64,000 nt of DNA. It comes from Nitrospirales bacterium (lineage in GTDB: Bacteria; Nitrospirota; Nitrospiria; Nitrospirales; UBA8639). A model generated the notes under the pieces. The model searched no databases and was not told the origin of the DNA. It saw only the letters and a list, made by a program, of their open reading frames with translations. Of the stretch, positions 1,220 through 45,279 are shown in pieces; the first letter of the stretch is position 1; the number at the start of each line of letters is the position of its first letter. The position numbers were made by a program, and so were the translations under genes. The DNA lies in NCBI GenBank assembly GCA_965223295.1, contig CBDCWC010000003.1:736001-800000 (forward strand), written 5' to 3'.

Positions 1220-2319
1220 GTCTGGGGTTCCTCTTCCAGCACACGAACCGGTTGCCCCGGAAAGAGCCGTTCATTGCCTTCCACCACAACAAGCATTCCG
1301 GGCTCAAGAGAGCCTTCGACTTCCACTTCATTATTGACGTGATTAGTCCCCTCCACAGGAACCTGAGTCACACTGCCTTCGTTCATGAGAAACACAAACT
1401 CCATACCCCCGCGAAGGACCAAAGCATCTTTGGGAACAACGAGTGCCTCATAGGGTGTCCCCACTTCCAGCGTCACCCGGGAGACCAGCCCACTCTTTAT
1501 CGTGAGATCGACATTCGGCAATTCTACTTTGATGGGAAATGTTCGAGAATTTCTATCAGCTTGCGCCACGACCGAAAAGACTTTTCCTTTGGCTTGAAAC
1601 CCTCGGAGACCATCAAACGTCGCCAAGACCGCCGCGCCGACTTTAATGTCGCCGACATAGCGCTCAGGCAAAGGCACTTCAACTTGCACCCGCGACAGAT
1701 CAACCAATTCCACGATAGCTCCGCCAGCTTGAATCCATTGGCCGACCTCAGTAAATTCTTGCGTCACCCACCCTGCAAATGGGGCTACGACGCGAGTTTT
1801 TTCTAATTGATCTCGGACTTGCAACATCTCAGACTCTAATAGCACCAACCGTTGCGCCAGCGCGGCCTCTTGCGTGACAGCATCATCATATTCTTTCTGC
1901 GTCACTAACTGTTTCGTAAAGAGGGCCTTAATGCGTTCTAAATCTTTTTTCGCCTGTTGATAGCGAGTCTCGGCCTCGCGATGCGAGGCCTCTGCCGAAT
2001 TGAGCTGGATGGTTAGCGTATCTGTTCGAAGTTGCGCCAACAATTGGCCTTTTTTCACGGCCATCCCCTCTTCCACGGGAAACTTCTCAACCAGCGCAGC
2101 GATTTCTCCAGCTACCACACTTCGCCGCCAAGGCTCTACCGTCCCCACCAGCTCCACTGTTTGTTGCACCGTTCGAGTGACGACTTCAGCAACACGAACA
2201 GGCATCGGAGGCGGTCCTTGTGGAGGTTGAGCGGCTTGCTGCTCACTGCACCCTTGCAAACCCGTCACACCAAGAAGCATCACCAGAAGACATGAACCTA
2301 TGTCTGTACGAATTGTCAT
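1216..2319 (-). CDS. RND efflux periplasmic adaptor (membrane fusion lipoprotein)
   Basis: Lipobox LQGC, lipoyl-like halves (VEEGMAVKKGQLL; VVAPFAG), helical hairpin; directly upstream of the RND permease. Confidence 0.93.
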   Translation of the reverse strand: MTIRTDIGSCLLVMLLGVTGLQGCSEQQAAQPPQGPPPMPVRVAEVVTRTVQQTVELVGTVEPWRRSVVAGEIAALVEKFPVEEGMAVKKGQLLAQLRTDTLTIQLNSAEASHREAETRYQQAKKDLERIKALFTKQLVTQKEYDDAVTQEAALAQRLVLLESEMLQVRDQLEKTRVVAPFAGWVTQEFTEVGQWIQAGGAIVELVDLSRVQVEVPLPERYVGDIKVGAAVLATFDGLRGFQAKGKVFSVVAQADRNSRTFPIKVELPNVDLTIKSGLVSRVTLEVGTPYEALVVPKDALVLRGGMEFVFLMNEGSVTQVPVEGTNHVNNEVEVEGSLEPGMLVVVEGNERLFPGQPVRVLEEEPQT

Positions 2320-2331
2320 CTTATTAGAAAA

Positions 2332-2976
2332 TTATTTTTTCAGAGCGGTTACCTCAATACCACCGAGAAACAACGCACTTAGCCACTCACCTTTATCAAC
2401 CAGTGATTCTTTAGGACCCGCTTCTAAGATCCAAACATAAATTGTCGAGTTCAACATCCCATGCAACGCTAAGGAGGTATCCTTGGCGTTCACCTTTCGA
2501 AATTCTCCAGCTTTGATCCCTGCTTTGATCAAATTGGCCACAAGCTCTATCTGAGCTAAATATTTTTTCCATACCCGATCGCCAAAGGCACTTTTCACGG
2601 TCCATTCAAACCCGCTCCATTCAGATACATAGATTCGGAAGAAGTCACGGTTTTGATCAGCGAATGCAAGTTTCACTCGTATGACTTCCCGCAACTTCTC
2701 TGATGTGGTTGTGCCATTTTTGGTAGCTTCCTTCAGAAGGTTCAACAGTTCTTCAACCTTCACCTCAACCAAAGAAATATAAATTTCTTCTTTACTCTTA
2801 AAGAATCGATACACGGTGCCCATGGCAAACTGGGATGATTCTGCAATTTCCGCCATACTGGTCTTAAAAAATCCATGTTGCGAAAACATGCGCTCAGCGG
2901 CTAAAAGAATCTCTTCTCGCCGAGCCTCGTATTCTCGCTGTTTTCGTTGGGACCGTTGATCCACGCGTGGCCTCAC
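2332..2976 (-). CDS. TetR/AcrR family transcriptional regulator
   Basis: N-terminal HTH ILLAAERMFSQHGFFKTSMAEIAE...GTVYRFFKSKEEI; heads the efflux operon. Confidence 0.93.
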   Translation of the reverse strand: MRPRVDQRSQRKQREYEARREEILLAAERMFSQHGFFKTSMAEIAESSQFAMGTVYRFFKSKEEIYISLVEVKVEELLNLLKEATKNGTTTSEKLREVIRVKLAFADQNRDFFRIYVSEWSGFEWTVKSAFGDRVWKKYLAQIELVANLIKAGIKAGEFRKVNAKDTSLALHGMLNSTIYVWILEAGPKESLVDKGEWLSALFLGGIEVTALKK

Positions 2977-3003
2977 ATTTGTTCGCCTATCCGCCCCATC
3001 TCC

Positions 3004-3058
3004 TGAATAATCATTCTAATAGGTGAACGGCTATTCGACAAGATGGAATATCTATTCA
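3004..3058. promoter_or_regulatory. Three candidate TetR operator palindromes (GAA-N6-TTC)
   Basis: GAATAATCATTC 3005-3016, GAACGGCTATTC 3025-3036 and GAATATCTATTC 3046-3057, spaced 20-21 bp, just upstream of tetR. Confidence 0.5.
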
Positions 3059-3488
3059 TTATTTCATCATGAACCTCATCGGTCAGAATTGGCAAGTACC
3101 TGAGAAAAGAAAACCGAAACCGGTCTGCCTCATTTGCCAAAGCTGAGTTCGGTGCCTTTCTGGAATGCGGGACACTCGTACATGGATTTTTGGGCCTGAG
3201 CTGTGGGGAGTGTGGCTGTGAGAAGCAGGTTCGTGCCTTCAAACAGATATTTGACCACGATATCCCGCAATATGGGGTCCCTCGACCACCCACGCCAACC
3301 AGGGTAGTTGTTCAATTGACCGAAACTAGACGCCCAGAAGGTACCCCCAACGAACGTGTTCAAGTCTCATGGCACATGCCCGTAAACTCTTAATTTTCCG
3401 GCAATTATCACTTAACATAGATGTAACATGGATGACTCGTTGAGGTAACAAGAGTGGGCTAGATTCTCCCGTTAGGAGAGTTGGTTGA

Positions 3489-4367
3489 ATGATTTTCCAA
3501 TTTCTAAGATTTCTTGGGGCCATAGAACTTGGACTACTCCTCGTCTTGATAGGAAATTTCTTAGGGTGTACGAATGAAGGTATCAATTCCACCCTCTCAT
3601 TGACTCCTTCAACTCCTTTGACCCAGGGAAAGCGGCTTTTCTATGAGGGAAAGATTAAGGAAGCTGAAGTCATTTTTTCTAAGGCGCTGAACGACAACCC
3701 ACATCAACCTGAGATTTTGAATGCCAGAGGATTTCTTTACGCTGAACAAAAGATCTGGGGAAAAGCCATCGAGGATTTTGAACAAACCGTACAACTGGAC
3801 CCTGAAAATTCTCGATATTCTGAAAATTTGGGAATCGCATATTTAGAGTCGGGCTTTCCCGAGAAAGCATTAACGTATTTTTCACGGGTGTTGCAGCAAT
3901 GGCCCAATTCCTCATCCGCCCTAAATCATAGAGGATTAGCCTTCAGTCGATTGGGAAAGTTGCAGTATGCCATTCATGACTTCTCAAAATCTTTGAATGG
4001 CAATGATAAAAATGCTGAGGCTTACCTCAACCGCGCCATTGCTTATATGAAGACAGGGAAAAATGCAGAAGCAAGGTCGGATTTGGATCGTGCCATTACG
4101 CTCAATCACTCCCTTTTTCAAGCTCATGAAAGCCGAGGGCTTCTTGCCCTTATAACTGGAGACATTCAGTCAGCAATTCAAGATTTTACTATGGCAATTC
4201 GTCTCGGGTCGGACGGTGGGCTAGTTCATTACAACCATGGCGTAGCTCTTTCCTTGGTGGGAAACACTAAAGAAGCAGAGAAAAATTTTGATATGGCTTG
4301 TGAAAGACACATTTTTGAGGCTTGTCGTCCAATTATCGAACCCAAGCCAGTGTTACAAACTTTGTGA
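3489..4367 (+). CDS. TPR-repeat lipoprotein
   Basis: Signal peptide with lipobox FLGC; multiple TPR consensus repeats (A..NRG.AY...G....A..DF..A). Confidence 0.88.
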   Translation: MIFQFLRFLGAIELGLLLVLIGNFLGCTNEGINSTLSLTPSTPLTQGKRLFYEGKIKEAEVIFSKALNDNPHQPEILNARGFLYAEQKIWGKAIEDFEQTVQLDPENSRYSENLGIAYLESGFPEKALTYFSRVLQQWPNSSSALNHRGLAFSRLGKLQYAIHDFSKSLNGNDKNAEAYLNRAIAYMKTGKNAEARSDLDRAITLNHSLFQAHESRGLLALITGDIQSAIQDFTMAIRLGSDGGLVHYNHGVALSLVGNTKEAEKNFDMACERHIFEACRPIIEPKPVLQTL

Positions 4368-4388
4368 AAAAATTAGATACTTAAGAAA

Positions 4389-4425
4389 ATCCCTGCTGGA
4401 TGTTCTATTAATATCCAGCAGGGAT
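4389..4425. terminator. Hairpin between convergent genes, probable bidirectional terminator
   Basis: ATCCCTGCTGGAT...ATCCAGCAGGGAT perfect 13-bp inverted repeat. Confidence 0.65.
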
Positions 4426-4450
4426 CTTGAACTCCTCAAACACGCCCGAC

Positions 4451-4975
4451 TCAAGTCTCAGAGCAATACGTTTCCTCCGTCACGGGGTATCCGATGAATT
4501 CAACGTCGGGTTCAGTTTCGATTGCGTCGTCCCCAGTTTTCCAAACGTGAAGACATTTAGCTGTGATAGAGGGAGTTATATGAGCATCCCGAGATTGGGG
4601 GCTTTCAACTTTTCCAACGACAAGAAATTTGTTTCCATATTGACGCCCCTCACGATCAAGTTTCCCAGGGTAAAAAATAGTAAATTTACCATCGTCACCT
4701 TTTCCTAGATCATGTGGTCCTTGATATTCAACATCGGGATACGGCAACCATTGGGCACTGACGATCGTTCCGTTCGCTCTGGACTCCACACCCACAATCC
4801 GCCCTGCAAGTTTAACAGCACGCCCTTCATACACATCAGGTTGTGCTGTCAACACCCCAAATTCTGACTCAGATTTCAGTATCTGACTTCCATTACCGTC
4901 AAAGATAGGAGCTGACGCACATCCTGAAAAAACTACCAACAGCAAACTGGTGGATAGAATCATGATATTTCGCAT
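4451..4975 (-). CDS. Slp family outer membrane lipoprotein
   Basis: Lipobox FSGC; PDVYEGRAVKLAGRI and CLHVWK motifs typical of Slp; RBS GGAGG. Confidence 0.75.
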   Translation of the reverse strand: MRNIMILSTSLLLVVFSGCASAPIFDGNGSQILKSESEFGVLTAQPDVYEGRAVKLAGRIVGVESRANGTIVSAQWLPYPDVEYQGPHDLGKGDDGKFTIFYPGKLDREGRQYGNKFLVVGKVESPQSRDAHITPSITAKCLHVWKTGDDAIETEPDVEFIGYPVTEETYCSET

Positions 4976-5196
4976 AATCTACCTCCTAATATTGGTCGAG
5001 TTGAATATTACTTACCTCAGATTATTCTACGTAATGAATCCGTAATATTCAATTAACATGAACGTAACATTGAAAAATTTCATAATTGTGACAAATTTTC
5101 CTTGACAACACTACTCATGAAATGTTCGACCAAGATGGCATACAATAGAATGGACCAGCATACACAGGTCACAGTCTCAACCAATGAGGAATAATC

Positions 5197-5907
5197 TTGA
5201 AAGGTATTGAGATGGGCGTGATTACTCTCTCTCATATCATGCTATCAATCGTTCTCGTCGTCAGCTGTATGTCGGCAGAACCGGTTGAGGCCACAACAGA
5301 TCATGATATGCAGCTCTGGTTCCCTCTCTACAATCGATTGCATCTACCAGGGAATTTCCGGGGATGGCTCGAAGTCAACCCAAGATACGGCAACAATGCA
5401 TCGGAGATTGATCAGCTTCTTCTTCGTCCAGCAATTGGATACCAAATCACTCCTTCCCTTTCCCTCTGGCAAGGTTACGCTTGGGTGACCAACTATGAGC
5501 CTCGATTTCGGGATGAACATCGGTTGTACCAACAATTGAGCTACCGACGTCGTTTCAGCGGATTCAAGGTTTCTAGCCGAACCCGCTTCGAGGAACGCTT
5601 TATTCGGAATGCGATCGGGACAGCACTACGTGCTCGCGAAATGGTACGAGGGGACATACCGTTTGGGCAGGACGAACGCTGGGCCTTGGTCATCTATGAT
5701 GAAATATTCATGAATCTCAATACAATCCGGAACGGTCCGAGATCGGGGCTCGATCAAAACCGATTCTTTGTCGGTATTAATCACAAGCTCACCGAGATTA
5801 TGGCCGTGGATTTTGGCTATCAAAACCAGACGATTAATAGAAGGGGACCAAACACCATGAATCACATTATCTTGATTCAATGGTTTCTTGATTGGGGGAA
5901 GACGTAA
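5197..5907 (+). CDS. DUF2490 family outer-membrane beta-barrel protein
   Basis: LLLRPAIGY, EHRLYQQ, RTRFEERF, YDEIF and DQNRFFVG motifs; signal peptide. Confidence 0.8.
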   Translation: MKGIEMGVITLSHIMLSIVLVVSCMSAEPVEATTDHDMQLWFPLYNRLHLPGNFRGWLEVNPRYGNNASEIDQLLLRPAIGYQITPSLSLWQGYAWVTNYEPRFRDEHRLYQQLSYRRRFSGFKVSSRTRFEERFIRNAIGTALRAREMVRGDIPFGQDERWALVIYDEIFMNLNTIRNGPRSGLDQNRFFVGINHKLTEIMAVDFGYQNQTINRRGPNTMNHIILIQWFLDWGKT

Positions 5908-5982
5908 CATGCGACCAACCCAGACCCCATGAGAAGCAATCCACCAACCCAGACGAGGAATGTGTGCAGAAAATAGATCCGT

Positions 5983-6591
5983 TCAACCGACCATTGCCTC
6001 TTCACTTTGTGGGCCACCTGAAACGCCCCCAGACACAATGAACGCCATCACTTCGGCGCTTTCGGCCTCTAGAGGACGCACCTGGGCTTTGGGAAACAGG
6101 AGGAGATGCCCTGCAAAATTATAGGACTGCGGAAAATAGACTGCGACATGATTGAGGAGTCCCAAAAACTCTAGATCGGTTCGTGTCACAAATCCCACTG
6201 CCTCCCCGTGGCTGCCAGGAGAAAGGGACACTAATACAGGCTGGTCAAATCGACGTTTTTCACCCATGAACGCGGCAATCAAATCCTTAATTGAGGTATA
6301 CAATAACTTCACAAATGGTGCATTCACCAATACCCGCTCCATGACATCCAGCACTTTCTGAACAAAAACCGTTGAAGCATACCGACCGGTTAATGTAATG
6401 AGACCTAGAGTTACCAAAAAACCCACCCCAGGAATAGGAATATTTAACCACCCATCAATCGTTTGCAATACCAGCCAGGCCACATACAACGTGGTGACGA
6501 CGGGCACAAGAATTAATAGGCCTTCCAAGAAATTTCGGGCTAATTCATTCATATTCATGATTTCCCAAAATTTTGGCCGTCGAAATTCCAT
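5983..6591 (-). CDS. DUF502 family membrane protein
   Basis: FLEGLLILVP, PFVKLLYTSIKD, GFVT, FIVSGG motifs; true start may be a downstream Met. Confidence 0.85.
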   Translation of the reverse strand: MEFRRPKFWEIMNMNELARNFLEGLLILVPVVTTLYVAWLVLQTIDGWLNIPIPGVGFLVTLGLITLTGRYASTVFVQKVLDVMERVLVNAPFVKLLYTSIKDLIAAFMGEKRRFDQPVLVSLSPGSHGEAVGFVTRTDLEFLGLLNHVAVYFPQSYNFAGHLLLFPKAQVRPLEAESAEVMAFIVSGGVSGGPQSEEAMVG

Positions 6592-6637
6592 CTCGCTCTA
6601 CCCCCTAGCAAAAAGTTGATACGTCATTCGCCTGTAA

Positions 6638-6827
6638 GAGAATGTTGAAAAAAGCCGCCAGCGGCGTTCTCGCCATTTTGTGGTGCTCACGTAGTGCCAG
6701 AGGCTCCGTGCATCAAGATGGTTGCGGACTTTCTGGACGGACCCTTCTGAACATTCCCTTCTGTTTCATGAGTTTGATCTCAATACGAAGACTTATGGGC
6801 TATCAGAGTGAAAGATTCAACAGCCCC
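6638..6827 (+). mobile_element. MITE family A, copy 1 (diverged)
   Basis: Ends ...TGTTGAA / TTCAACA...; core AAAAAAGCCGCCAGCGGCGTTCTCGCCATTTT; 5-bp TSD TGTAA at 6633-6637 and 6828-6832. Confidence 0.85.
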
Positions 6828-6960
6828 TGTAAGAATGTACCCCACTCCTGGAAGCCACACAACCTCGCAGACCCATGTCAATACACAATAGAGGAGCTTA
6901 CAGCGAGGGAAGCAATACAGTATAATTCACGAATCTGATGTTTTGAACAAGGAGAGCACT

Positions 6961-7227
6961 ATGGCACAGAGTAGTTCAGGAGCCGGAACTTCATCATCAC
7001 AAATCCCAAATGCATCACCCGAAACGGAAATCTTGCATGTGGTAATTCAGCGCGATGGCAAACAAGTCAGCGCAAAATGGGGACTGCACCCCAATCTGAA
7101 AGAGGAACTGAAGCCTGAGGAATGGAAAGAACTCACGGAAATCATGGGGAAAGTGACAACATTAGTTGGGGGTCGTTTTTCCAAGATTCTGAACAAAGCC
7201 GAAGAAGAAGTGTCGGGCACCGCTTAA
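6961..7227 (+). CDS. Small hypothetical protein
   Basis: ATG with AGGAG RBS; upstream TATAAT; 88 aa with natural composition. Confidence 0.65.
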   Translation: MAQSSSGAGTSSSQIPNASPETEILHVVIQRDGKQVSAKWGLHPNLKEELKPEEWKELTEIMGKVTTLVGGRFSKILNKAEEEVSGTA

Positions 7228-7324
7228 GTTATATGAGGACCGTTGTCGTTTCACTCCCCGTCTTTCACCTTCCCTCTTCAGAATGAAGGCCTCAGCGGCT
7301 CCTCGATGCTCTGCAGTAAGGAGT

Positions 7325-8623
7325 CTATCGACCAAAATTTTGGATTGTATTGAAATCGGGGACCTGTTGAGCAGCAAAATCATTAGGAACATCACCCATA
7401 CGGATAAGAGAAATGGCCACCGGAACCATATTAGAAAAATCTTGATAGGCACCCACAAGCTGTTGTCCATCTTTCGATAACGTCGCGGTCGATTGCCCCA
7501 TCGTCCCCAAGGCCGTTCGATACATGAATGTCACTTGATTGCCTTCGAGTTGGCCTTCCCCTTCGGCAGTCACCATCGTTCCCATTGCGCTCGTGGTCAC
7601 TTCGGTCATTGTGACATGGTTACCTTGTTGCTGTAAGACGTAAGAAATCGTCGGTTCGTCTGGATTCTTCCAAACTCCAGTCACTACAAGGTTTCGGCCT
7701 TTTTCTAACATAGCCTTCAAGGTTTGCCGCTCACCAGGACGAAGATCAACAGTACTAGTCCAAGAACGAAAGCCGTCCTTTCTGACCATGACATCATATT
7801 CATCAGGATCCAGACCAGACACCACTACAGGCCCTTGAGAAGTCTGCCCAACCAATTTATCATCAACATAAACGTGAGCGTTCGTCGGAGTTGACTCAAT
7901 AACTAACGAGGCCAACTCCGTTGGCCGGACTACGGACGATGAGGGATTAACCGTTTGAAGAGGAAAGCCTGACCAGTTTTCTACTGTAAATTTGGCAATC
8001 TGAGCTGGTTTGGCATTGCCAAATTGCCCTGTTACTTCCATCACCACTCCAATGACCCGTCCTTGATACAACACAGGGCCTCCTGAATTGCCCTCCGCCA
8101 CCGCCCCCGAAAATTTCAGAATGGGTCCATCAAAGCCTGAGACCGTTCCTTTCGTCACCGCCCACTCATTCCCTCCTACTCTAGGGAATCCTATTAAATG
8201 AATTTCTTCTCCTCCACTAACCCGAGTCGTCGCATCCCACGGTAAAATGTGCACATCATCAGGAAGATCACCTTTGACTTTTAGCAACGCTAACCCACGC
8301 ATGTCTCCCCCTTCTTTCTTCACAACCTTCGCGAACAACGGTTCTTCTTGATGACTGAAAAATGTCGCCTGTATAGAGCGTGGAGCTTCCACCTCCCCTT
8401 CCACAACATGAGACGCCGTCACAATATACAAATGCTTCTTGCTCCTGCCAGCAATAAACCCGGTCCCAATTTTTCTGGCATTCGAAAACTCAGTCGCAAT
8501 CTTGACGACGCCTTTTTTGAGCGTCCTAATATCCAACTGCGCCACTGCGGCAGTCAGTCCTGTTCCTAACATAAACCAACACAGCACAATCATATGGGCA
8601 ATAATTTTCATAAAACCACTCAT
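7325..8623 (-). CDS. Secreted trypsin-like (S1) serine protease with PEGA domain and beta-rich C-terminal domain
   Basis: Signal peptide ...AAVA-Q; GTGF, VTASHVV (His), GNSGGP (Ser); PEGA LVIESTPTNAHVYVD...YDVMVRKDGFRSW. Confidence 0.85.
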   Translation of the reverse strand: MSGFMKIIAHMIVLCWFMLGTGLTAAVAQLDIRTLKKGVVKIATEFSNARKIGTGFIAGRSKKHLYIVTASHVVEGEVEAPRSIQATFFSHQEEPLFAKVVKKEGGDMRGLALLKVKGDLPDDVHILPWDATTRVSGGEEIHLIGFPRVGGNEWAVTKGTVSGFDGPILKFSGAVAEGNSGGPVLYQGRVIGVVMEVTGQFGNAKPAQIAKFTVENWSGFPLQTVNPSSSVVRPTELASLVIESTPTNAHVYVDDKLVGQTSQGPVVVSGLDPDEYDVMVRKDGFRSWTSTVDLRPGERQTLKAMLEKGRNLVVTGVWKNPDEPTISYVLQQQGNHVTMTEVTTSAMGTMVTAEGEGQLEGNQVTFMYRTALGTMGQSTATLSKDGQQLVGAYQDFSNMVPVAISLIRMGDVPNDFAAQQVPDFNTIQNFGR

Positions 8624-8663
8624 TTACCAAAAAGAAAAGAAGGACAGGGCATCGCACATGAGG

Positions 8664-10256
8664 TTAGGAAGCATCTTTGGCGCAGCGAAAGCCTGTTTGA
8701 TCATCAGAATCTTCTGGTAACTGATTTTCCCGAACCTTCAGCTCTAAATAAGAAAACCACGACCCGCCACGTTTGACCTTTTCACTCCCCTTTTGAGGAC
8801 CCGATGGATCCCTCTGAGGGCTACTCTGATAATACCCCGGATCATACCAATCACTTGTCCATTCCCAAACATTCCCGGCCATATCAAACAACCCCCAAGG
8901 GTTGGGAGAAAAAGATCCAACCGGAGCAGCTCGGGCAAACCCATCATCCACTTTCTCAAATTCGATGGAGCCACTAAAGATCGAGCGAAATTGGATATCA
9001 GGAATATTTCCTACTTGTTCTGTGGGTGCGACATCCCCCCACCAGTGTTTGGTGGATGTCCCAGCTCGAGCAGAGTATTCCCATTCCGCTTCCGTTGGTA
9101 GCCGTTTCCTTGCCCATTCACAGTAGGTCTGGGCATCAAACCAAGAAACCTGTACCACCGGAAATTTCTCGCCTGTATTTTCAGTGCTTGAACCCTCACC
9201 CATGGGATGACGCCAGTTCGCCTTCTCAATTTCCTGAGGTTGCCACGTACTGCCAAAAAATACGCCGTCTTTTTTCATGACCGCCATTTGCGTTCCTTGA
9301 TGTTCTACAGTGCTCTGATATCCAGACTCTTTTACAAATTTGCTAAATTGTTCGACGGTAATTTCATGAGAATCCATATAAAATGACCCAACCTGAACAT
9401 GATGAGATGGTGAATAGTCCGCGTTACGTTCAGGCAAACAAAAGTCCACCTTCATAATGGAATCCCATTCACACACTTCATTGGGTTCAGAACCCATAAT
9501 AAATTCGCCAGAGGGAATCAATACCATTTTAAGATCATCATTCCTGGTGAGTGAGGAACCGTCTTCTTCATCAACGGCACGGTCAAATTCCTCTTTAACA
9601 CTTTCTTCCAGGGAACCCGGTTCAACACCAATCCCTTCTAAGTATGTCAATAAACTCTTGTGGGTAATACCTAGACCAAACTCTCCTCTATTAGTCATCG
9701 CCATCCCGACAACCTTCCCGTTGAAGACGATAGGGCCACCGGAAAATCTAGCCGCAACTCCCGGATCTAAGGTGATATCATGTACCACACGATTGGAAAT
9801 ATCTCGGTTTACGACTGCCCAGTCTCCACCACCACCTGGATGCCCAACAACCACTACCCGTTCCCCTCCGGAAACCAATTGGACAGACGATGGAAATTCC
9901 AAAATCTGTATATTGTTCGGAAAGTGTTCTGTTCCTCGAACAATGAGAACGGCCAGTCCTCGCAGATCATCCCCAACCTGAGCTCCAGGCATTACGGCTG
10001 CAGTGATTGGAATTTGGGGGGCATCTGAAGGATGTGCCGAAAAAAATTCGACCCGTGGCTGTTGATCCCCTGCAATTACATGGGCAGCCGTCATGACATA
10101 GACCGTTTCCGGTTCCAGACGAACAATAAAACCCGTTCCGGTTTGCCCTGTTGTCGTGGTAATTTTCACCACCCCAGATTTCAAACTATCTAGATCCTGC
10201 GCCCAAGCCGCTGGCCCAAATGTAAACATGTTGATTAGGCTGAAAAGACAACACAT
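8664..10256 (-). CDS. Secreted trypsin-like protease fused to an FGE-sulfatase (SUMF1/EgtB/PvdO-like) domain
   Basis: GTGF, TAAHVI, RFSGGP; FGE motifs MVLIPSGEFIMGS, PVVQVSWFDA, RLPTEAEWEYSAR, GLFDMAGNVWEW, RGGSW, GFRC. Start at 10256 has an AGGGA RBS; the ORF is open to 10433. Confidence 0.85.
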   Translation of the reverse strand: MCCLFSLINMFTFGPAAWAQDLDSLKSGVVKITTTTGQTGTGFIVRLEPETVYVMTAAHVIAGDQQPRVEFFSAHPSDAPQIPITAAVMPGAQVGDDLRGLAVLIVRGTEHFPNNIQILEFPSSVQLVSGGERVVVVGHPGGGGDWAVVNRDISNRVVHDITLDPGVAARFSGGPIVFNGKVVGMAMTNRGEFGLGITHKSLLTYLEGIGVEPGSLEESVKEEFDRAVDEEDGSSLTRNDDLKMVLIPSGEFIMGSEPNEVCEWDSIMKVDFCLPERNADYSPSHHVQVGSFYMDSHEITVEQFSKFVKESGYQSTVEHQGTQMAVMKKDGVFFGSTWQPQEIEKANWRHPMGEGSSTENTGEKFPVVQVSWFDAQTYCEWARKRLPTEAEWEYSARAGTSTKHWWGDVAPTEQVGNIPDIQFRSIFSGSIEFEKVDDGFARAAPVGSFSPNPWGLFDMAGNVWEWTSDWYDPGYYQSSPQRDPSGPQKGSEKVKRGGSWFSYLELKVRENQLPEDSDDQTGFRCAKDAS

Positions 10257-10322
10257 GGCTTCCCTGAAATAACAAAAGAGTCCCTCATTTAAGTTGCATG
10301 AAGAATTGTTTTCTCTGCCTGG

Positions 10323-10392
10323 GTCATTCCCGTAAAAACGGGAATCCAGATTATTTATTACATTTCTGGATGCCCGCCTTCGCGGGCATGAT
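10323..10392. repeat. dRS3/RPE-like palindromic element (inverted doublet)
   Basis: GTCATTCCCGTAAAAACGGGAATCCAG...CTGGATGCCCGCCTTCGCGGGCATGA. Confidence 0.8.
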
Positions 10393-10448
10393 GAACATCT
10401 AGCTCGTCCTATACACCTTTTCAAAAACATCACTCTTACCCGTTGTTG

Positions 10449-11960
10449 CTATAACCCAACTAAATTTCTAAGCGGCGACAAGACCGGATGGAAACGAATG
10501 ACATCGAATACCGTTGGTCTAAGATCTCGTGGATTGTCGTGCGTTCCTGTCTTAATGTAGCCAACTTTTCCTTGCATATCTACCACAAACATATGAGTCA
10601 TAAAATCGACACGAATTGAAGTAATTTCAAATCGCTCAAGATCGTCGACAGACAAAAACATCGGGGCCCGAAATGTGACCTCGGGAAAATCTGAAAGATT
10701 CCGATAGCGAACAACCCCTTGGAAATTGGGATGACTCTTTCGTTCACCAGTCTTAGGATCTTGCCAAGACACATCCAACGACTCTACTGGTAAGGTCGTC
10801 GTGGAAAATGTAAATTTTTCCGTACGTGTACTCGGATTAATCACCATGCTAAAGGTGGTATCGTTTCCTTCTATTGTCATTGTTCCAGAATGTCCATCGA
10901 ACAGAGCCTGATATGTCAGTTCTTGATTCTGCGTAAACGGCAAATTGGAAACCTCTTGCAACAAAAGACCTTCTTCCACCATTTCTACATTACCTAAGCC
11001 TGACAAGACCACTCGCTGTTTTTCTTGTTCGGCCCTCATTGTCAGCGTCATAGCCTCATCACTAGATGTTTCAAGCATGACGGTGGTTGGTTTGGCAAGC
11101 AGAATCGCATCTAACTTTCCAACAGACGGTTCACTTTTATTGATGGACTCGAGTGTGACCATGGCGTTCATTCCAGACTTCACCGCCCCAAATTTCCAGG
11201 CTCGCCCCTGGCTTTGCAATTCTATCCAAGCCTTGGGCGGATACACATCGGCTTCCCAATCCAACTCGTCAGGATTAGCCACAAGCAATTGATTGGGGCT
11301 CATTACCACATGTCCCACCTGTTGCAGAGAAAGCTTGTGAAACATCAATGGATCCGTCAATCGTTTCTGATCAGACCCGGGATTGATAAACGCTTCAAAG
11401 CGGCCCGTCTGCACTTGAATATTCACATCTGCATCGATGTGCCAGAATGAACTGACGAGTAACAACATGACGAAAACAATGGCCACAAGGACTTTTATGC
11501 CAATGACCGAGGCAATTTTCCCGATCCACGATGCTTTGGTCACCGCCTCTACTGGTAACGCGAGAGGCTTTCCTTCTAACTTTGCCTTGATGACGGAAAG
11601 AAGAATAGAAAATTCCTTGGATTCCGCTGTCCCCTTCCAGTCCAAAAACCGCAAAGCTTGGATCCCCGTAAAAGCCAAGGGAATCGCATTCGCTTCCAAC
11701 ATGACTGGGACAATCTTCTCTCCTTTTAAGGCCGCCCGAGCTTCTGCTCGAACCCATCTGGATCGCTTGGATTGCGTAGTCCATAAGACCACTACACATT
11801 TGGCCCCTGTGAGCGCCTCTTCAATGGTCTTATCCCATTCACTCCCAACCTGAATATCTCGATCCCACCACACAGAAAGACCCGAGGCTTCCAGGCCATG
11901 CGCCACTTGCTGAGCAATGGCCCGATCTTCACTTGAATAACTTATGAAGATGTCCTTCAT
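10449..11960 (-). CDS. TIR-domain protein with one TM helix and a large unknown extracytoplasmic domain
   Basis: DIFISYSSEDR, SVWWDRDI, VVVLWT..S..SRWVRAE (conserved Glu), IVPV; TM IGIKVLVAIVFVMLLLVSSFW. Confidence 0.88.
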   Translation of the reverse strand: MKDIFISYSSEDRAIAQQVAHGLEASGLSVWWDRDIQVGSEWDKTIEEALTGAKCVVVLWTTQSKRSRWVRAEARAALKGEKIVPVMLEANAIPLAFTGIQALRFLDWKGTAESKEFSILLSVIKAKLEGKPLALPVEAVTKASWIGKIASVIGIKVLVAIVFVMLLLVSSFWHIDADVNIQVQTGRFEAFINPGSDQKRLTDPLMFHKLSLQQVGHVVMSPNQLLVANPDELDWEADVYPPKAWIELQSQGRAWKFGAVKSGMNAMVTLESINKSEPSVGKLDAILLAKPTTVMLETSSDEAMTLTMRAEQEKQRVVLSGLGNVEMVEEGLLLQEVSNLPFTQNQELTYQALFDGHSGTMTIEGNDTTFSMVINPSTRTEKFTFSTTTLPVESLDVSWQDPKTGERKSHPNFQGVVRYRNLSDFPEVTFRAPMFLSVDDLERFEITSIRVDFMTHMFVVDMQGKVGYIKTGTHDNPRDLRPTVFDVIRFHPVLSPLRNLVGL

Positions 11961-11979
11961 AAGGCACGAGACAATCCGG

Positions 11980-12741
11980 TTAGGGATTAAGAGAAGGTTG
12001 GTGGAAGAAATGAACTTCTTTGTTGATGGATTGATTCGTAGAAAGAGAAAACCCTGTGATCTTTAGTACATATGAACCGGGCAGAGCATCTCTGGCATTC
12101 CATTGAATGGTAAACGGTCGCCCTGCACGCTTCCGCCGAAACTTTTGTACATTCATCGTCTGCCCTGTTTCTTGCTGAAGGATGGCAGCCATAAGCCGTG
12201 CATCTTCCCCTGTTTTCATCGTGAAGAGATAACCCTCGATTGTCGCAGGAGGATGGGCATAATACAGCACAGCCGGCGCGACTCGTTCTACTGTCGAACT
12301 GGTTGCGCTGCCCAAACGCACCAATGCGCCCATGTCGTACAGATCCAACTTAGGCACAAGTTGATTCAAGACAGGATCAGTAGGCCAGGTAAATACATTC
12401 TGAAAACCTGATTTCCAAGGGGTTGCAGGCCGAACCTTATCCAGCCAATAATAGGCTCGATAGTCTAGCTCTCGGACGATAAGATGCACTATGTCGTCGC
12501 CTTCCAAATAAAAACGAAGTGAGAGACGCTCAGGGAACCGCTCTGTCTCTACAGGCTCTTGATAATCAACAAGGACAGAAATCAGTTCAATGTCATAGCC
12601 CGAGACCGGTTTAGGCTTCACGCCTTCATAGCGATCCCCTCGCTGTTGATATTGGAGGTCAAGTTGAGCCCAGACAAGCATGGGAAACGTTCCAAGCAAG
12701 ACGAGGCCAATACGAAGTCCCCTAGAAACCCGTTTCATCAT
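11980..12741 (-). CDS. Secreted hypothetical protein, first gene of the TIR/trypsin operon
   Basis: Signal peptide ending VWA-Q; beta-rich mature part (LQYQQRGDRYEG...); 19-nt gap to the TIR gene. Confidence 0.75.
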   Translation of the reverse strand: MMKRVSRGLRIGLVLLGTFPMLVWAQLDLQYQQRGDRYEGVKPKPVSGYDIELISVLVDYQEPVETERFPERLSLRFYLEGDDIVHLIVRELDYRAYYWLDKVRPATPWKSGFQNVFTWPTDPVLNQLVPKLDLYDMGALVRLGSATSSTVERVAPAVLYYAHPPATIEGYLFTMKTGEDARLMAAILQQETGQTMNVQKFRRKRAGRPFTIQWNARDALPGSYVLKITGFSLSTNQSINKEVHFFHQPSLNP

Positions 12742-12965
12742 CTAGCTCTCTCTTTGTTCATCATGGCAGGATCACCAGAACGCGTTCGATTGAAAAACCA
12801 AAATTCAGATGTGATGCAGTCTACCGCGGACGGAAAAATGAATCTAGTAGTGAGGGAACTTGTGACGTACGAAGAAGATGAGACGTTAGCAAAAAAATGG
12901 AACAAACTAGAAAGGATGGGAAGGATGTTCCTTAGGAATCAATAGGCTCCCAATTTCAGGTAGTG

Positions 12966-14480
12966 CTATGTGCCTTGAGGTAAGCGTTCTTCTTCCCAGC
13001 CACCGCCAATGGCTTTGAAGAGCGTGACCATGTCGTTGAGACGAGCGCGTTGGGTTTGCACCAATTGCAATTCGGCGGACAGCACGGTCCGCTGCGCATC
13101 TAAAACGTCTAAGTATGTGACTAAACCTTGGCGGTATCGAATTTCTGCTAATTCACGCGCGTTTTGTGAAGCTTGGACCTGGCGTTGTTGATGGACGAGT
13201 TGTTCTTGCCGGGTCTGCAAGGCACTCAGCACATCCGCTACTTCGCGAAAGGCATTCAGGATGGTGTGTTGATATTGCTCTAGCATCTGCTGATAACGGG
13301 ATTCGGCCACTTCTAAACGGGCCTTGTTGGTATAACCCTCGAAAATAGGAAGTGACACGGAAGGCCCTACACTAAAATTTCGGCTCGCCCAGTTGAACCA
13401 TTCAGAAAATTCACTGGTTTGAAATCCCCCCGTTCCCGTTAGGGCCACCGTCGGGAAAAAATACGCGCGTGCTTCTCCTATGCGAGCATTGGCCGCTTTT
13501 AAGTTTTCTTCCACTTCCACAATATCCGGACGCCGTTGCAATAGATCCGCCGGCAACCCGATGGGTATGGACGGCTGAACCACGACCGCCCGCAATGGCT
13601 TCGTCTCAAGACCCAACGCATTGGGGTGCGCTCCCGACAGCCATTCCAGTTGATGTTGCTGCACCGCTCGCAACCGGCGTAATTCCGGCACTTGCGCCGC
13701 CGTTTCAGAGACAAGAATTTCCGCTCGTTTAACATCCAGATCTGACACCAGACCCGCCTCGGCTCTGGCTTTGATAATGGAGAGAGAATCTTGCTGCAAG
13801 GCGAGATTGTGGGTGGCAATTTCCAGCTGTTCGTCTAATTCTCGCAGGCGAAAATAGCCTTGAGCCACATCACTCATAAGGGACAACGCAATGCCACGCC
13901 GATTCATCTCACTGGCAAAAGCTTCGGCAGAAAACGCCTCTTGGTTTCGACGGATACGTCCCCATAAATCTAACTCCCACCGTAAATCTAAGGCCGTATT
14001 CCAAATATCAAAATTCGCGCCTGGTGGCGCAAATCCTTCGGGTGAGACTCCCGTTGGAGCCGCCAAGATAGTTTCTGACCGCCGCACACGGGTGTAGTTC
14101 CCATCCAATGACAGATTGGGATACAGACCGGCGCCAGCTCCTTGCGCCAAAGCCCGCGCCTCCAGTACCCGGAACCCTGCCTGCCGTACATCATGATTAC
14201 GTTCTAACGCTTGTTCAATGAGGTGGTTGAGCTCTTCATTCTGAAATACCTGCCACCAAGACGCCTCCGGAACCAACCCTACTGAAACCGAAAGATCCGA
14301 CGTTGTACCCGTCATGGTCATGGCATCCCAATTTTGAGGCGTTCTAGAATCTGGCATCTGGTAATCAGGCCCCATCAAGCAGGCGGGAAAGCCGGCGATA
14401 ATTCCTATGATCAACAGGCAGAAGGTCCAATCAACCGGTCGTTGAGCTAATACATATTTCCGTGTCGGCAAAGGTCTCAT
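12966..14480 (-). CDS. Efflux outer membrane factor lipoprotein (NodT/OprM/TolC family)
   Basis: WWQVFQNEEL, WELDLWGRIRR, PADLLQRRPDI, LFKAIGGGW. Confidence 0.93.
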   Translation of the reverse strand: MRPLPTRKYVLAQRPVDWTFCLLIIGIIAGFPACLMGPDYQMPDSRTPQNWDAMTMTGTTSDLSVSVGLVPEASWWQVFQNEELNHLIEQALERNHDVRQAGFRVLEARALAQGAGAGLYPNLSLDGNYTRVRRSETILAAPTGVSPEGFAPPGANFDIWNTALDLRWELDLWGRIRRNQEAFSAEAFASEMNRRGIALSLMSDVAQGYFRLRELDEQLEIATHNLALQQDSLSIIKARAEAGLVSDLDVKRAEILVSETAAQVPELRRLRAVQQHQLEWLSGAHPNALGLETKPLRAVVVQPSIPIGLPADLLQRRPDIVEVEENLKAANARIGEARAYFFPTVALTGTGGFQTSEFSEWFNWASRNFSVGPSVSLPIFEGYTNKARLEVAESRYQQMLEQYQHTILNAFREVADVLSALQTRQEQLVHQQRQVQASQNARELAEIRYRQGLVTYLDVLDAQRTVLSAELQLVQTQRARLNDMVTLFKAIGGGWEEERLPQGT

Positions 14481-15427: not shown

Positions 15428-15451
15428 TACACAAGATCCTCCTACCCTTGT

Positions 15452-15640
15452 TGGATTGTTGAATAATGAAGATATCAAAAGCCCTATTTCGCCAGGAAGC
15501 CTTGTCCATCAACAGTGTGGGTCTGTTCAAAAAAGTCCGTCCAGCAAGGCCGCAGCCATTTTTGCGCGCAGAGCGTACTGGCACTACGTGAGCACGGAAA
15601 AATGGCGAGAACGCCGCTGGCGGCTTTTTTCAACAGACCC
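15452..15640 (-). mobile_element. MITE family A, copy 2, inside the ABC efflux operon
   Basis: Ends TGGATTGTTGAA / TTCAACAGACCC; TSD CTTGT at 15447-15451 and 15641-15645. Confidence 0.9.
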
Positions 15641-17496: not shown

Positions 17497-18182
17497 GACT
17501 TGTCTTTCCGCTTTCGGCTCTTTGATGAACGAGTGAAACCTGTTCGACCTGAATGAACATCTGATGGCTTACGCAATCCATTCAAAAATACTTCCACAAA
17601 GGTCCGAGTAATCTCTTCTGAGTCCTCTGCCACCGGCGCTTGAAACAACACCGTGAGAAGTCGATGATAGATCAACATCCCCATGAACGATCGAGCGGCA
17701 ACCAGTGGGGGGACAGGCCGAAAGACTCCTTCTTGAATGCGTTGTTCAATGTACGCACTCAACACATCGTAAAAATGGCGAATATGGTTATGAAAAAACA
17801 TATCCGATAATTCATGGTTTTCTAAGGCACTGAACAGAATGAGCCGCATAAGATTTTGATCGGGTGCGCCTCCCACAATCGTTTCTGCAATGGCCTGAAA
17901 GACCTCTATATCCTTCCGCTGCTCGGCAAGTTCTTTAATCTGTTCCAACAGACCAGGGACCGGAGACTTTTCTGCTAAAATGGCGGTATAGAGATCTTCC
18001 TTACTCGGAAAATGTTTAAAAATTAAGGCTTCGCTGACTCCAGCCAGCGCAGCAATTTCACGAGTTTTTGTCCCATTAAATCCTTTTTCTGAGAAAACTG
18101 AAGCTGCAGATTGGATAATGCTGGCCTTCCGGGCAGCAGCCGGAATACGGGGACTTGGCGTTTTTGGTAAAATCTTTTTCAT
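17493..18182 (-). CDS. TetR/AcrR family transcriptional regulator
   Basis: HTH FSEKGFNGTKTREIAALAGVSEALIFKHFPSKEDL. Confidence 0.93.
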   Translation of the reverse strand: MKKILPKTPSPRIPAAARKASIIQSAASVFSEKGFNGTKTREIAALAGVSEALIFKHFPSKEDLYTAILAEKSPVPGLLEQIKELAEQRKDIEVFQAIAETIVGGAPDQNLMRLILFSALENHELSDMFFHNHIRHFYDVLSAYIEQRIQEGVFRPVPPLVAARSFMGMLIYHRLLTVLFQAPVAEDSEEITRTFVEVFLNGLRKPSDVHSGRTGFTRSSKSRKRKDKS

Positions 18183-18187
18183 ATTAG

Positions 18188-18232
18188 TAAGTATTTACTT
18201 ATTACTATATGATCTCTATCAAACCTCGTCAA
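18188..18232 (-). promoter_or_regulatory. sigma70 promoter of the tetR-ABC operon with an overlapping palindromic operator
   Basis: Minus strand TTGACG-N17-TATAGT (18232-18204); palindrome TAAGTA-TT-TACTTA 18188-18201 over the predicted +1. Confidence 0.65.
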
Positions 18233-18353
18233 GCCAACAGACCAGCCGGAGTATCCAATAAGTTGACTCTACATAATTAGTGTCTATCTTATAGGGGAAC
18301 ACAGATTCAAAAATCCTCGTCATCCGATACTTTTACAGGTCAACTCCCAACCC

Positions 18354-25301: not shown

Positions 25302-25336
25302 TTTTATGTGTCGGCCGTCCCTATTCTTTCCCATAG

Positions 25337-25517
25337 GGATCTGTTGAAAAAAGCCGCCAGCGGCGTTCTCGCCATTTTTCCGTGCTCACGTAGTACCAGG
25401 ACGCTCCGCGCGCAAAAACGGCTGCGGCCTTGCTGGACCGATTTTTTGAACAGCTCCGAGGCTTTCGGCTTCCTAAAGAATATATGGCCTTTAATATCTT
25501 CATTATTCAACACTTCC
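25337..25517 (+). mobile_element. MITE family A, copy 3
   Basis: Same core; ends GGATCTGTTGAA / TTCAACACTTCC; flanks CATAG/TATAG (4 of 5 match). Confidence 0.85.
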
Positions 25518-38333: not shown

Positions 38334-38524
38334 GGGGCTGTTGAATAATGATGATATCAAGGGCCACATTTCGCCTCTGTGACGTCACATATCAGAGGCC
38401 TCGGGGCTGTTCAAAAAAGTCCGTTCAGCAAGGCCACAGCCATGTTCGCGCGCGGAGCGTCCTGGTAGTACGTAAGCACGGAAAAAGGGCGAGAACGCCG
38501 CTGGCGGCTTTTTTCAACAGACCC
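38334..38524 (-). mobile_element. MITE family A, copy 4
   Basis: Ends GGGGCTGTTGAA / TTCAACAGACCC; TSD ATTAG at 38329-38333 and 38525-38529. Confidence 0.9.
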
Positions 38525-45088: not shown

Positions 45089-45279
45089 GGGACTGTTGAA
45101 TAATGATGATATCAACGTCCAAATTTCGTCTCTGCGAGATGACATGTCAGAGGCCTCGGGGCTGTTCAAAAAATTCCGTCCAGCAAGGCCGCAGCCATTG
45201 TTGCGCGCGGAGCGTACTGGTAGTACATGAGCACGGGAAAATGGTGAGAACGCCGCTGGCGGCTTTTTTCAACAGACCC
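45089..45279 (-). mobile_element. MITE family A, copy 5, directly upstream of the topoisomerase A gene
   Basis: Ends GGGACTGTTGAA / TTCAACAGACCC; same core; TSD degenerate. Confidence 0.88.

Follow-up and report, generated by a model that had tools for sequence, protein, structure and literature searches.

A conserved gene module of a membrane-tethered TIR protein, a secreted two-domain protein and modular proteases in Nitrospirales: a candidate trans-envelope signalling system

Organization of the locus

A cluster of four genes, here called g1 to g4, was examined in a 64,000-nt stretch of the genome of a Nitrospirales bacterium (assembly GCA_965223295.1, contig CBDCWC010000003.1, positions 736,001 to 800,000), which we refer to throughout as the window. 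An earlier interpretation made from the letters alone (the sequence-only reading) had described the cluster as an operon of a secreted protein, a membrane-anchored TIR protein and two secreted trypsin-type proteases, and had proposed it as an undescribed trans-envelope defence or signalling system. The open reading frames (ORFs) confirm four co-oriented genes on the minus strand between 7325 and 12741. The core of what we describe here is a conserved module in which the membrane protein g2 is paired with the secreted protein g1, which has two immunoglobulin-like (Ig) domains, and usually with one to four secreted modular proteases. The parts of the cluster are as follows.

g1, 12741..11980, minus strand: ORF of 253 amino acids (aa), predicted secreted protein
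g2, 11960..10449, minus strand: ORF of 503 aa with a TIR domain, a transmembrane helix and a predicted periplasmic all-beta domain
g2 TIR domain, 11571..11960, minus strand: residues 1 to about 130, predicted cytoplasmic, with W69 and E73 in the motif SRWVRAE
g2 transmembrane helix, 11451..11528, minus strand: residues about 145-170, from the sequence and as a helix in the AlphaFold2 (AF2) model
g2 predicted periplasmic all-beta domain, 10452..11435, minus strand: residues 176-503, an undescribed family, called the ectodomain below
g3, ORF 10433..8664 with a probable ATG start at 10256 giving 530 aa (8664..10256), minus strand: predicted secreted trypsin-fold protease with a module resembling formylglycine-generating enzyme (FGE)
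g3 trypsin domain, about 9702-10139, minus strand: from Pfam
g3 FGE/C-type-lectin-fold module, about 8676-9530, minus strand: from Pfam, without the FGE catalytic cysteine pair
g4, 8623..7325, minus strand: ORF of 432 aa, predicted secreted trypsin-fold protease with a PEGA domain
g4 domains, minus strand: trypsin about 8045-8467 and PEGA beta-sandwich about 7697-7909 (Pfam), and a C-terminal part of about 120 aa without assignment
Double-hairpin element resembling repetitive extragenic palindromic (REP) sequences, about 10321-10390, minus strand: in the gap between g2 and g3

The genes are closely spaced, with 19 nt between g1 and g2, 192 nt between g2 and g3 (counted from the ATG at 10256) and 40 nt between g3 and g4; the two short gaps and the repeat in the long one had been noted by the sequence-only reading and were found again here. 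The ATG at 10256 is the only plausible start of g3 because the upstream part of its ORF is translated repeat element, which reads as the pseudo-peptide ..CPRRRASR..FYGND... Secretion of g1, g3 and g4 was read from sequence. Their hydrophobic N-termini end in VWA, AWA and AVA respectively, each followed by Q, as had been reported before, and equivalent hydrophobic leaders are present in the g3 and g4 orthologues of other genomes.

Conservation of the module

To place the cluster among its relatives, one genome per species was scanned with a g1 pattern. This yielded 110 candidate stretches, 87 of which encode a g1 relative, and the best 80 of these are the loci used here (numbered L001 to L080); profile hidden Markov models of g1, the ectodomain, TIR and trypsin were run over all of their ORFs. 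The 80 loci come mostly from a single order, the Nitrospirales, and the counts that follow therefore overstate the number of independent observations. Among the 64 loci with at least 1700 nt downstream of g1, 59 have a g2-type gene directly after it (58 found by script, and L079 by eye since its ORF overlaps the g1 ORF and lies outside the distance filter), and 56 of these 59 genes carry a TIR domain. Of the 53 loci that extend 1500 nt or more past g2, 47 have at least one trypsin ORF downstream. Conservation of the operon, which the sequence-only reading had left to be checked, is borne out by both figures. The module occurs in the Nitrospirota, in one clade of Pseudomonadota and in a small number of other bins, and trees of g1 (79 rows) and of the ectodomain (60 rows, quick search) give the same major clades, including a single Pseudomonadota clade and one that holds L001-L030.

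A trypsin-FGE gene stands upstream of g1 in L058, L079 and L080, and the module is kept in the absence of TIR in L062 (g1, short g2, trypsin-Lcl_C) and in L079 and L080 (trypsin-FGE, g1, short g2). It might be argued that common descent alone keeps the four genes side by side and that they have no joint function, as much of the co-occurrence falls within the Nitrospirales, where the flanking synteny is conserved too and where shared ancestry inflates the counts. However, the order g1-g2-trypsin recurs with wholly different flanks in the Pseudomonadota clade and in L050, L056 and L062, it is permuted in L079 and L080, and the gaps between module genes are short, 19-50 nt in most loci. We regard mere descent as a very improbable explanation, and the linkage of g1, g2 and protease is not due to chance.

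Two copies of the whole module, L014 and L018, lie on two contigs of one metagenome-assembled genome and represent either two strains in the bin or a duplicated locus.

The TIR protein g2 and its ectodomain family

The TIR_2 domain of g2 covers residues 4-118 (Pfam, E 6e-28, 98.1 bits against a cut-off of 28). An AF2 model built with a 40-sequence alignment has a mean predicted local distance difference test (pLDDT) of 86.9, with the ectodomain mostly above 90, and shows first the TIR domain, then a helix (145-170) and an all-beta region (177-480), with two short helices at the C-terminal end. Searched as a whole with Foldseek, the model matches the TIR fold of AbTir (7uxu, TM-score (TMt) 0.63, root-mean-square deviation 2.5) and also those of SARM1 and the SPARTA TIR-APAZ protein. 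Residue E73 of SRWVRAE aligns with the glutamate of the PdTIR structure 3h16 (E 6e-5). This glutamate belongs to a W-x-x-x-E motif and is, we take it, the catalytic residue of SARM1 and of bacterial TIRs. It is invariant in all 78 of the 78 TIR domains attached to the g2 ectodomain family, and the TIR is therefore not decaying. Judged by fold and glutamate, the g2 TIR is a plausible catalyst of the NADase-competent subclass. Matches in PADLOC concern the TIR part only (SAVED-TIR, E 3e-15, residues 3-80; PDC-S66, E 7e-11; and ThsB models), and the NCBIfam model of Thoeris ThcB4 gives 31.5 bits against a cut-off of 220.

The transmembrane helix is bordered by basic residues towards the TIR and by acidic ones at its other end. 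By the positive-inside rule the TIR would therefore be cytoplasmic and the beta domain periplasmic, facing the predicted periplasmic partners; Pfam and the AF2 model thus agree with the earlier description of an N-terminal TIR, one transmembrane helix and an unrecognised ectodomain of about 330 aa. Residues about 176-503 belong to no Pfam family, and none was found for this part in any of 40 family members. A profile of the ectodomain run against PDB sequences gave only spurious HPr matches (E about 0.01), and an Atlas search with the ectodomain gave no usable match. The domain does have recognisable landmarks. A juxtamembrane motif, D-x-R-x-T-x-F-D, is conserved and reads DLRPTVFD in the window; most g2 relatives have a D-H-R-L-T-x-F-D motif followed by a second transmembrane helix and a basic tail. 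This second helix is lost in the clade of the window (L001-L030), and a short C-terminal helix is left in the window's g2.

The ectodomain family is large, with 635 clusters (50% identity) at E <= 0.001 and 224 at E <= 1e-30 in the representative library, and its members are named in their sources only as "hypothetical" or "TIR domain-containing protein". Among the best 150 matches, 116 are full-domain representatives, whose architectures we counted as follows.

Short N-terminus before the first transmembrane helix only: 66 of 116
TIR N-terminus: 39 of 116
Other N-termini: 10 of 116, mostly disordered tails by reading, including one SEFIR+TIR and one truncated TIR
Short form with a C-terminal ATPase_2/AAA after the second transmembrane helix (P0161): 1 of 116

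TIR is thus present in about one third of the family and in nearly all Nitrospirales loci sampled. Pfam run on 56 family proteins longer than 400 aa found TIR_2 in 42, two of which also have SEFIR. Genuine short forms occur inside the window's own clade, namely P0289 and P0302, which start with MKKF and run straight into the transmembrane helix. The 731-aa protein P0161 consists of a transmembrane helix, the ectodomain, a second transmembrane helix and then a predicted cytoplasmic coiled coil with ATPase_2/AAA (STAND-like), which would amount to an alternative output module at the opposite end of the protein. The suggestion that TIR might be swapped for other effectors is borne out by four states on a constant ectodomain: no cytoplasmic part, TIR, SEFIR+TIR and a C-terminal ATPase. 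A search for longer fused forms of the ectodomain found none, which counts for little.

Two loci hold unusual relatives. In L044, from a long-read chromosome assembly, a TIR-less g2 homologue (10507-11781) is interrupted by one in-frame stop at 11215-11217 and may be a pseudogene, a sequencing error or a case of recoding. In L039, from a Nitrospira genome, a second TIR protein near the module (17776-19752) combines one TIR with four beta-sandwich domains of cadherin-like type and the beginning of another TIR. The gene after it is again FGE-like, and additional TIR matches of a similar kind occur in L033 and L036. The L039 protein was considered as a further receptor of the g2 type and was ruled out, as it has no transmembrane helix.

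The secreted protein g1

The AF2 model of g1 (pLDDT 89.4, predicted TM-score 0.83) shows a leader helix and two beta-sandwich domains of Ig or FlgD-Ig-like type. The N-terminal segment of the predicted mature protein is strongly conserved, with the motif EG[VI][KR][PA]KPVSG. The protein has no match in Pfam, PADLOC or NCBIfam, and a weak match to an Ig-like Pfam family was obtained for 6 of 19 family members. Foldseek of the model against the PDB returned only generic tandem Ig/FN3 proteins at a TM-score of at most 0.28, while Atlas features of g1 lead to FlgD_ig clusters with a score of 0.91, which we treat as a lead only. Homologous clusters number 316 among 786 scored candidates, and the few that are named are called "hypothetical protein" and come from Nitrospira or Nitrospirales.

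Proteases g3 and g4 and their C-terminal modules

Both g3 and g4 are trypsin-fold proteases (Pfam Trypsin_2, E 1e-9 and E 6e-18), fused to an FGE-sulfatase domain (E 1e-60) and to PEGA (E 7e-13) respectively. They are paralogous, as the sequence-only reading had held, with trypsin domains 35-36% identical. The protease histidine is present in 94 and the serine (GxSGGP-type motif) in 92 of 97 aligned domains, those of g3 (FSGGP) and g4 (GNSGGP) included. In PADLOC and NCBIfam the protease parts of the LmuA and RT-protease models were matched, as single-domain or sub-threshold matches only.

The number of trypsin genes per locus varies from 0 to 4 and their C-terminal modules vary too. Pfam was run on 65 of the 90 listed trypsin ORFs and found Trypsin_2 in 64; the C-terminal modules of these 65 ORFs were distributed as follows.

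FGE-like (whole or half): 32 of 65
PEGA: 11 of 65
Lcl_C: 6 of 65
Sel1 repeats: 3 of 65
ASH/TMEM131-like Ig: 3 of 65, all in Pseudomonadota
None recognised: 10 of 65

The FGE-like module of g3 aligns with FGE structures (6muj and 2q17) at E 1e-46 but is not a formylglycine-generating enzyme, as the copper-binding cysteine pair is missing: no cysteine stands at either position of the LCHDSYC pair. The catalytic pair is likewise kept in 0 of 16 FGE modules with the RGGSW motif in related loci. Its absence argues for a lectin-fold binding module and not an enzyme, and such a non-catalytic FGE-like module fits a binding role. Part of the module also aligns with the FGE-fold lipoproteins PorK/GldK of type IX secretion, but membership of that group was rejected, since GldK scores 111.6 bits against a cut-off of 350 with partial coverage, there is no lipobox cysteine and no genes of that secretion system lie nearby.

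The proteases appear to be exchanged as cassettes and in parts. The closest relative of the window is L001, at about 81% DNA identity; homology runs through g1 and g2 into the REP-like element, ends at window position 10322 and restarts at 8529 within g4. From this break we conclude that g3, which is absent in L001, is an insertion or deletion with the repeat element at its boundary, whereas g4 has an orthologue in L001 and in many other loci. Within g3 the trypsin domain is 59-67% identical to those of its near relatives while the FGE module is only about 34% identical to theirs; it is 58-61% identical to modules of L053 and L058 that are carried on a different protease. From this mismatch, modules have evidently been exchanged between proteases. 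As regards diversity-generating retroelements, no direct repeat involving 8664-9530 was found in the 64-kb window, and no reverse transcriptase among ORFs of at least 150 aa in 1-30 kb of the window.

Genomic context and selection

On one side the cluster is flanked by AcrB, HlyD and TetR genes, a TPR protein, Slp, DUF2490 and DUF502, and on the other by an outer-membrane efflux protein, HlyD, an ABC ATPase, a MacB-type permease, TetR and Lon. PADLOC applied to these flanks gave only generic ATPase, Lon and sigma-54-activator domain matches. Of the 80 loci, 21 have the efflux outer-membrane gene on the upstream side, many loci being too short to tell. On the g4 side lies a small gene of its own.

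94-aa ORF, 6943..7227, plus strand: no family, convergent on the g4 end of the cluster

This ORF has no Pfam or PADLOC match. A tblastn search places it behind the last protease gene, in the opposite orientation, in 28 of the 80 loci (many loci again being too short to tell), and the copies in L040, L042, L046, L052, L054, L055, L057 and L065 are 43-51% identical. Its position is kept in distant Nitrospira loci where other flanks have changed, and it may be an associate of the module, although this is uncertain. As the efflux gene and the 94-aa ORF are kept in place, the module occupies a conserved chromosomal site in Nitrospirales; the locus is syntenic and vertically inherited in this order.

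Selection was estimated from a single pair, the window and L001, as the ratio of nonsynonymous to synonymous substitution rates (dN/dS, NG86). Both g1 and the TIR have a value of 0.09, the ectodomain has 0.15, the g4 trypsin domain 0.14 and PEGA with the C-terminus 0.13, and in this pair g1, TIR, ectodomain and g4 are under purifying selection. In the middle clade the ectodomain is the fastest-changing part, with a median identity of 42% compared with 61% for g1 and 75% for the TIR.

These data invite the view that the module serves envelope housekeeping: a beta-domain protein with two transmembrane helices, together with g1 and the proteases, would carry out a periplasmic task such as processing proteins of the envelope, the S-layer or the matrix or controlling their quality, and the TIR would be a lineage-specific regulatory addition. 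The syntenic site, the purifying selection and the housekeeping flanks speak for it, as do the TIR-less majority of ectodomain representatives, the short forms P0289 and P0302 in the window's own clade and, in a Pseudomonadota subclade, a module that stands behind four unknown genes and two genes for RoxA-like dihaem cytochromes. It is harder to reconcile with a TIR glutamate that never varies wherever a TIR is present, and with the varying number of proteases and their shuffled binding modules, which are more typical of a recognition repertoire than of a fixed enzyme; g1 and the ectodomain also match no known envelope-biogenesis family. We consider housekeeping a possibility to be taken seriously, though we lean away from it.

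The subclade just mentioned comprises nine loci (L074, L068, L070-L072 and L075-L078). The four genes before its module belong to unknown families, the two dihaem genes encode c-type cytochromes, all six are on the strand of the module, and a DUF1571 gene follows the module; in L074 these genes are at 1413-9956 and 13567-14037.

Comparison with known systems

The closest bacterial analogy, in our view, is the sigma-E envelope-stress gate formed by DegS, RseA and RseB, in which DegS combines a trypsin fold with a sensor domain, RseA is a single-pass protein with its N-terminus inside and a periplasmic domain that the protease targets, and RseB is a secreted guard that binds this domain. As predicted from sequence, the present module likewise has a trypsin-fold protease exported with a C-terminal sensor-type module, an N-in membrane protein with a periplasmic domain and a secreted partner, all encoded in clustered genes. 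Unlike that system it lacks a PDZ domain, an anti-sigma domain and a gene for a sigma factor, its output is a TIR or nothing, its sensor modules are FGE-like, PEGA, Lcl_C, Sel1 or Ig-like, and a locus may hold up to four proteases. No sequence relationship to RseA or RseB was found in Pfam or NCBIfam. The NCBIfam models of HtrA/DegP and MarP match g4 weakly (E 3e-9 and 1e-8, far below the cut-offs), and membership of the HtrA/DegP/DegS family was rejected on the basis of 36.3 bits for TIGR02037 against a cut-off of 416 and the lack of a PDZ domain in Pfam.

A eukaryotic analogy is offered by the Toll/Spaetzle pathway of insects, where extracellular modular serine proteases act on a secreted ligand of a single-pass receptor with a cytoplasmic TIR. 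The predicted parts here are comparable: modular secreted proteases with recognition-type domains, a secreted protein and a membrane receptor with a TIR on the cytoplasmic side. In contrast to Toll, the ectodomain has no leucine-rich repeats and g1 no cystine knot, neither being homologous to its insect counterpart, most g2 relatives have two transmembrane helices, the bacterial TIR probably works as an enzyme rather than as an adaptor, and a cascade is hypothetical here. Taken as an analogy, the DegS gate, with TIR in place of the anti-sigma domain, seems to us at least as good as the Toll cascade.

Among TIR NADase defence systems (Thoeris ThsB, SPARTA, TIR-SAVED, Pycsar/CBASS) the module shares a TIR_2-type domain with its conserved glutamate, and differs in that its TIR is held at the membrane and continues into a predicted periplasmic domain. 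Thoeris was rejected as none of the 21 flanking ORFs of the window encodes a ThsA-type effector (SIR2 or Macro/SLOG) by Pfam and PADLOC. The TIR effectors of CBASS, Pycsar and type III CRISPR were likewise set aside, no cyclase, SAVED or CARF being fused or present in the window flanks, and no prokaryotic Argonaute partner, as in SPARTA, was found there by Pfam and PADLOC.

The domain vocabulary of trypsin, FGE-like lectin and TIR is also that of the conflict systems predicted by Kaur et al. (2020, PMC7159879; 2021, PMC8195603), who propose the FGE-like domain (FGS) as a non-enzymatic lectin that binds invaders and trypsin and TIR as effectors. Those systems are built on a cytoplasmic NTPase core (MoxR-vWA, STAND, GTPases) with effector-associated adaptor domains, often with diversification by diversity-generating retroelements. 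The present module differs in that its trypsin and FGE-like parts carry secretion leaders, and it shows neither a repeat pair in the window nor a reverse transcriptase in 1-30 kb of it. NTPase-centred ternary and STAND systems were rejected, as no MoxR-vWA, STAND or GTPase core and no effector-associated adaptor occurs in the window's cluster or flanks; one distant family member, P0161, has an ATPase_2/AAA domain.

The module could also be read as dedicated immunity against phage or predators, acting by abortive infection through a TIR NADase and fixed in the Nitrospirales chromosome. Its TIR does resemble defence TIRs in sequence and in its AbTir/SPARTA fold, predicted conflict systems make repeated use of trypsin, FGE-like and TIR domains (PMC7159879 and PMC8195603), the ectodomain evolves fastest, and protease cassettes turn over, as the absence of g3 from L001 illustrates. 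Nevertheless, the window shows neither a defence island nor a mobile-element context, inheritance is vertical and syntenic, the ectodomain is not diversifying by the one pair compared, many members of its family lack an effector domain, and the PADLOC matches are confined to single domains with no system-level partner. Dedicated immunity therefore strikes us as improbable.

A working mechanism and its standing

As a working mechanism for the locus, and the likeliest of the readings compared, we propose a protease-gated trans-membrane TIR receptor, to which we give a probability of roughly 45%. The binding modules (FGE-like or Lcl_C lectin folds, PEGA or Ig-like domains, Sel1) would recognise a ligand that is periplasmic or derived from the envelope. 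The attached protease would then cut g1 or the g2 ectodomain, with g1 guarding or presenting the ectodomain, and the resulting change would be relayed through the membrane helix to the cytoplasmic TIR. The TIR would oligomerise and hydrolyse or cyclise NAD+, leading to growth arrest, cell death or a nucleotide signal. Every interaction in this scheme is inferred, as are the direction of signalling and the trigger, which may be phage, predator or envelope damage.

Several observations weigh against such a receptor. On the side of gene order, g1 has no adjacent g2 in 5 of the 64 loci (L047, L063, L066, L069 and L073; in L073 a TIR-ectodomain gene and a trypsin gene lie about 5 kb away on the opposite strand), and no trypsin gene stands beside g2 in 6 of the 53 (L003, L025, L026, L030, L044 and L064). 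At the level of the proteins, the leader of g3 lacks a basic n-region, the column of the protease aspartate is ambiguous and shifts with the alignment (71 of 97 domains have D there and 16 have N), and Foldseek of the g2 model gave PDB matches driven by the TIR alone and none at E <= 0.001 in BFVD. Most directly, 66 of the 116 full-length ectodomain representatives have no cytoplasmic domain, and the TIR label changes 24 times on the ectodomain tree, at least 13 of these on well-supported branches (quick search). A TIR that is often absent and repeatedly gained or lost is an accessory, and the core function of the ectodomain may be something other than signalling to NAD+. Finally, no defence genes were recognised beside the module in the window or in the flanks of L074, L064, L062, L079 and L050, which hold metabolic, housekeeping or unknown genes in the latter five loci. 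L064 also has an IS200-like transposase, at about 5 kb on the downstream side of g2.

A bolder form of the proposed receptor would make it a bacterial counterpart of Toll, in which secreted pattern-recognition proteases, each a trypsin fold with lectin, Ig or Sel1 modules, would monitor the periplasm and, upon binding a ligand that is foreign or stems from a damaged envelope, would process g1 or the ectodomain and so switch on a TIR receptor. Two transmembrane helices and the beta ectodomain would then form an ancient, widespread sensor platform to which the outputs TIR, SEFIR-TIR and ATPase were repeatedly grafted. We think this bolder form unlikely. The sequence-only reading had set out a similar order of events, from sensing by FGE and PEGA through processing by the proteases to activation of TIR, and this sequence remains inference only.

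Overall that earlier interpretation is partly supported. A conserved and undescribed module is present, and apart from single-domain matches PADLOC, NCBIfam and Pfam tie it to no named system, but defence is not specifically supported, given the syntenic site, the purifying selection and the many TIR-less relatives; a defence role is possible and is not indicated by the context. No description of g1, the ectodomain or the module was found in the full-text literature, including the available portions of PMC7159879, PMC8195603 and PMC10907252, with subscription-only papers and supplementary tables outside the scope of the search.

If the protease-gated receptor is real, it would represent a trans-membrane mode of TIR control, as the bacterial TIR systems compared here all sense inside the cell, and the origin of extracellular-sensing TIR receptors would become a directly testable question. 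The module is a candidate TIR-based system of bacterial signalling or conflict that draws on two undescribed protein families, and it could be categorically new if a Toll-like logic holds. In either case two families without annotation are now defined, g1 with its 316 clusters and the ectodomain with its 635, both conserved across the nitrite-oxidising Nitrospirales, which are key to the nitrogen cycle and to wastewater treatment. Should the module turn out to serve envelope maintenance, it would still be a widespread and uncharacterised part of cell-envelope biology.

Repeat elements and other features

No Rfam family was matched over 6500-13500, and a scan for promoters and terminators gave fewer sites than in shuffled sequence. 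The REP-like element at about 10321-10390 consists of two GC-rich hairpins. Its core 20-mer (10368-10387) has one copy with 3 mismatches in the 64-kb window, at 52581-52600, where 0 would be expected by chance. Elements of the same kind are found in L001 at about 12360-12430 and, in L007 and L008, ahead of the g3 orthologue.

A separate family of intergenic repeats, up to about 190 nt long and with 66-95% identity between copies, is present in at least 5 copies in the window. Copies lie at 15450-15640, 38334-38524 and 45089-45279, and inverted at 25327-25447 and 6643-6700; one stands just past the cluster and another between genes of the MacAB-type efflux cluster.

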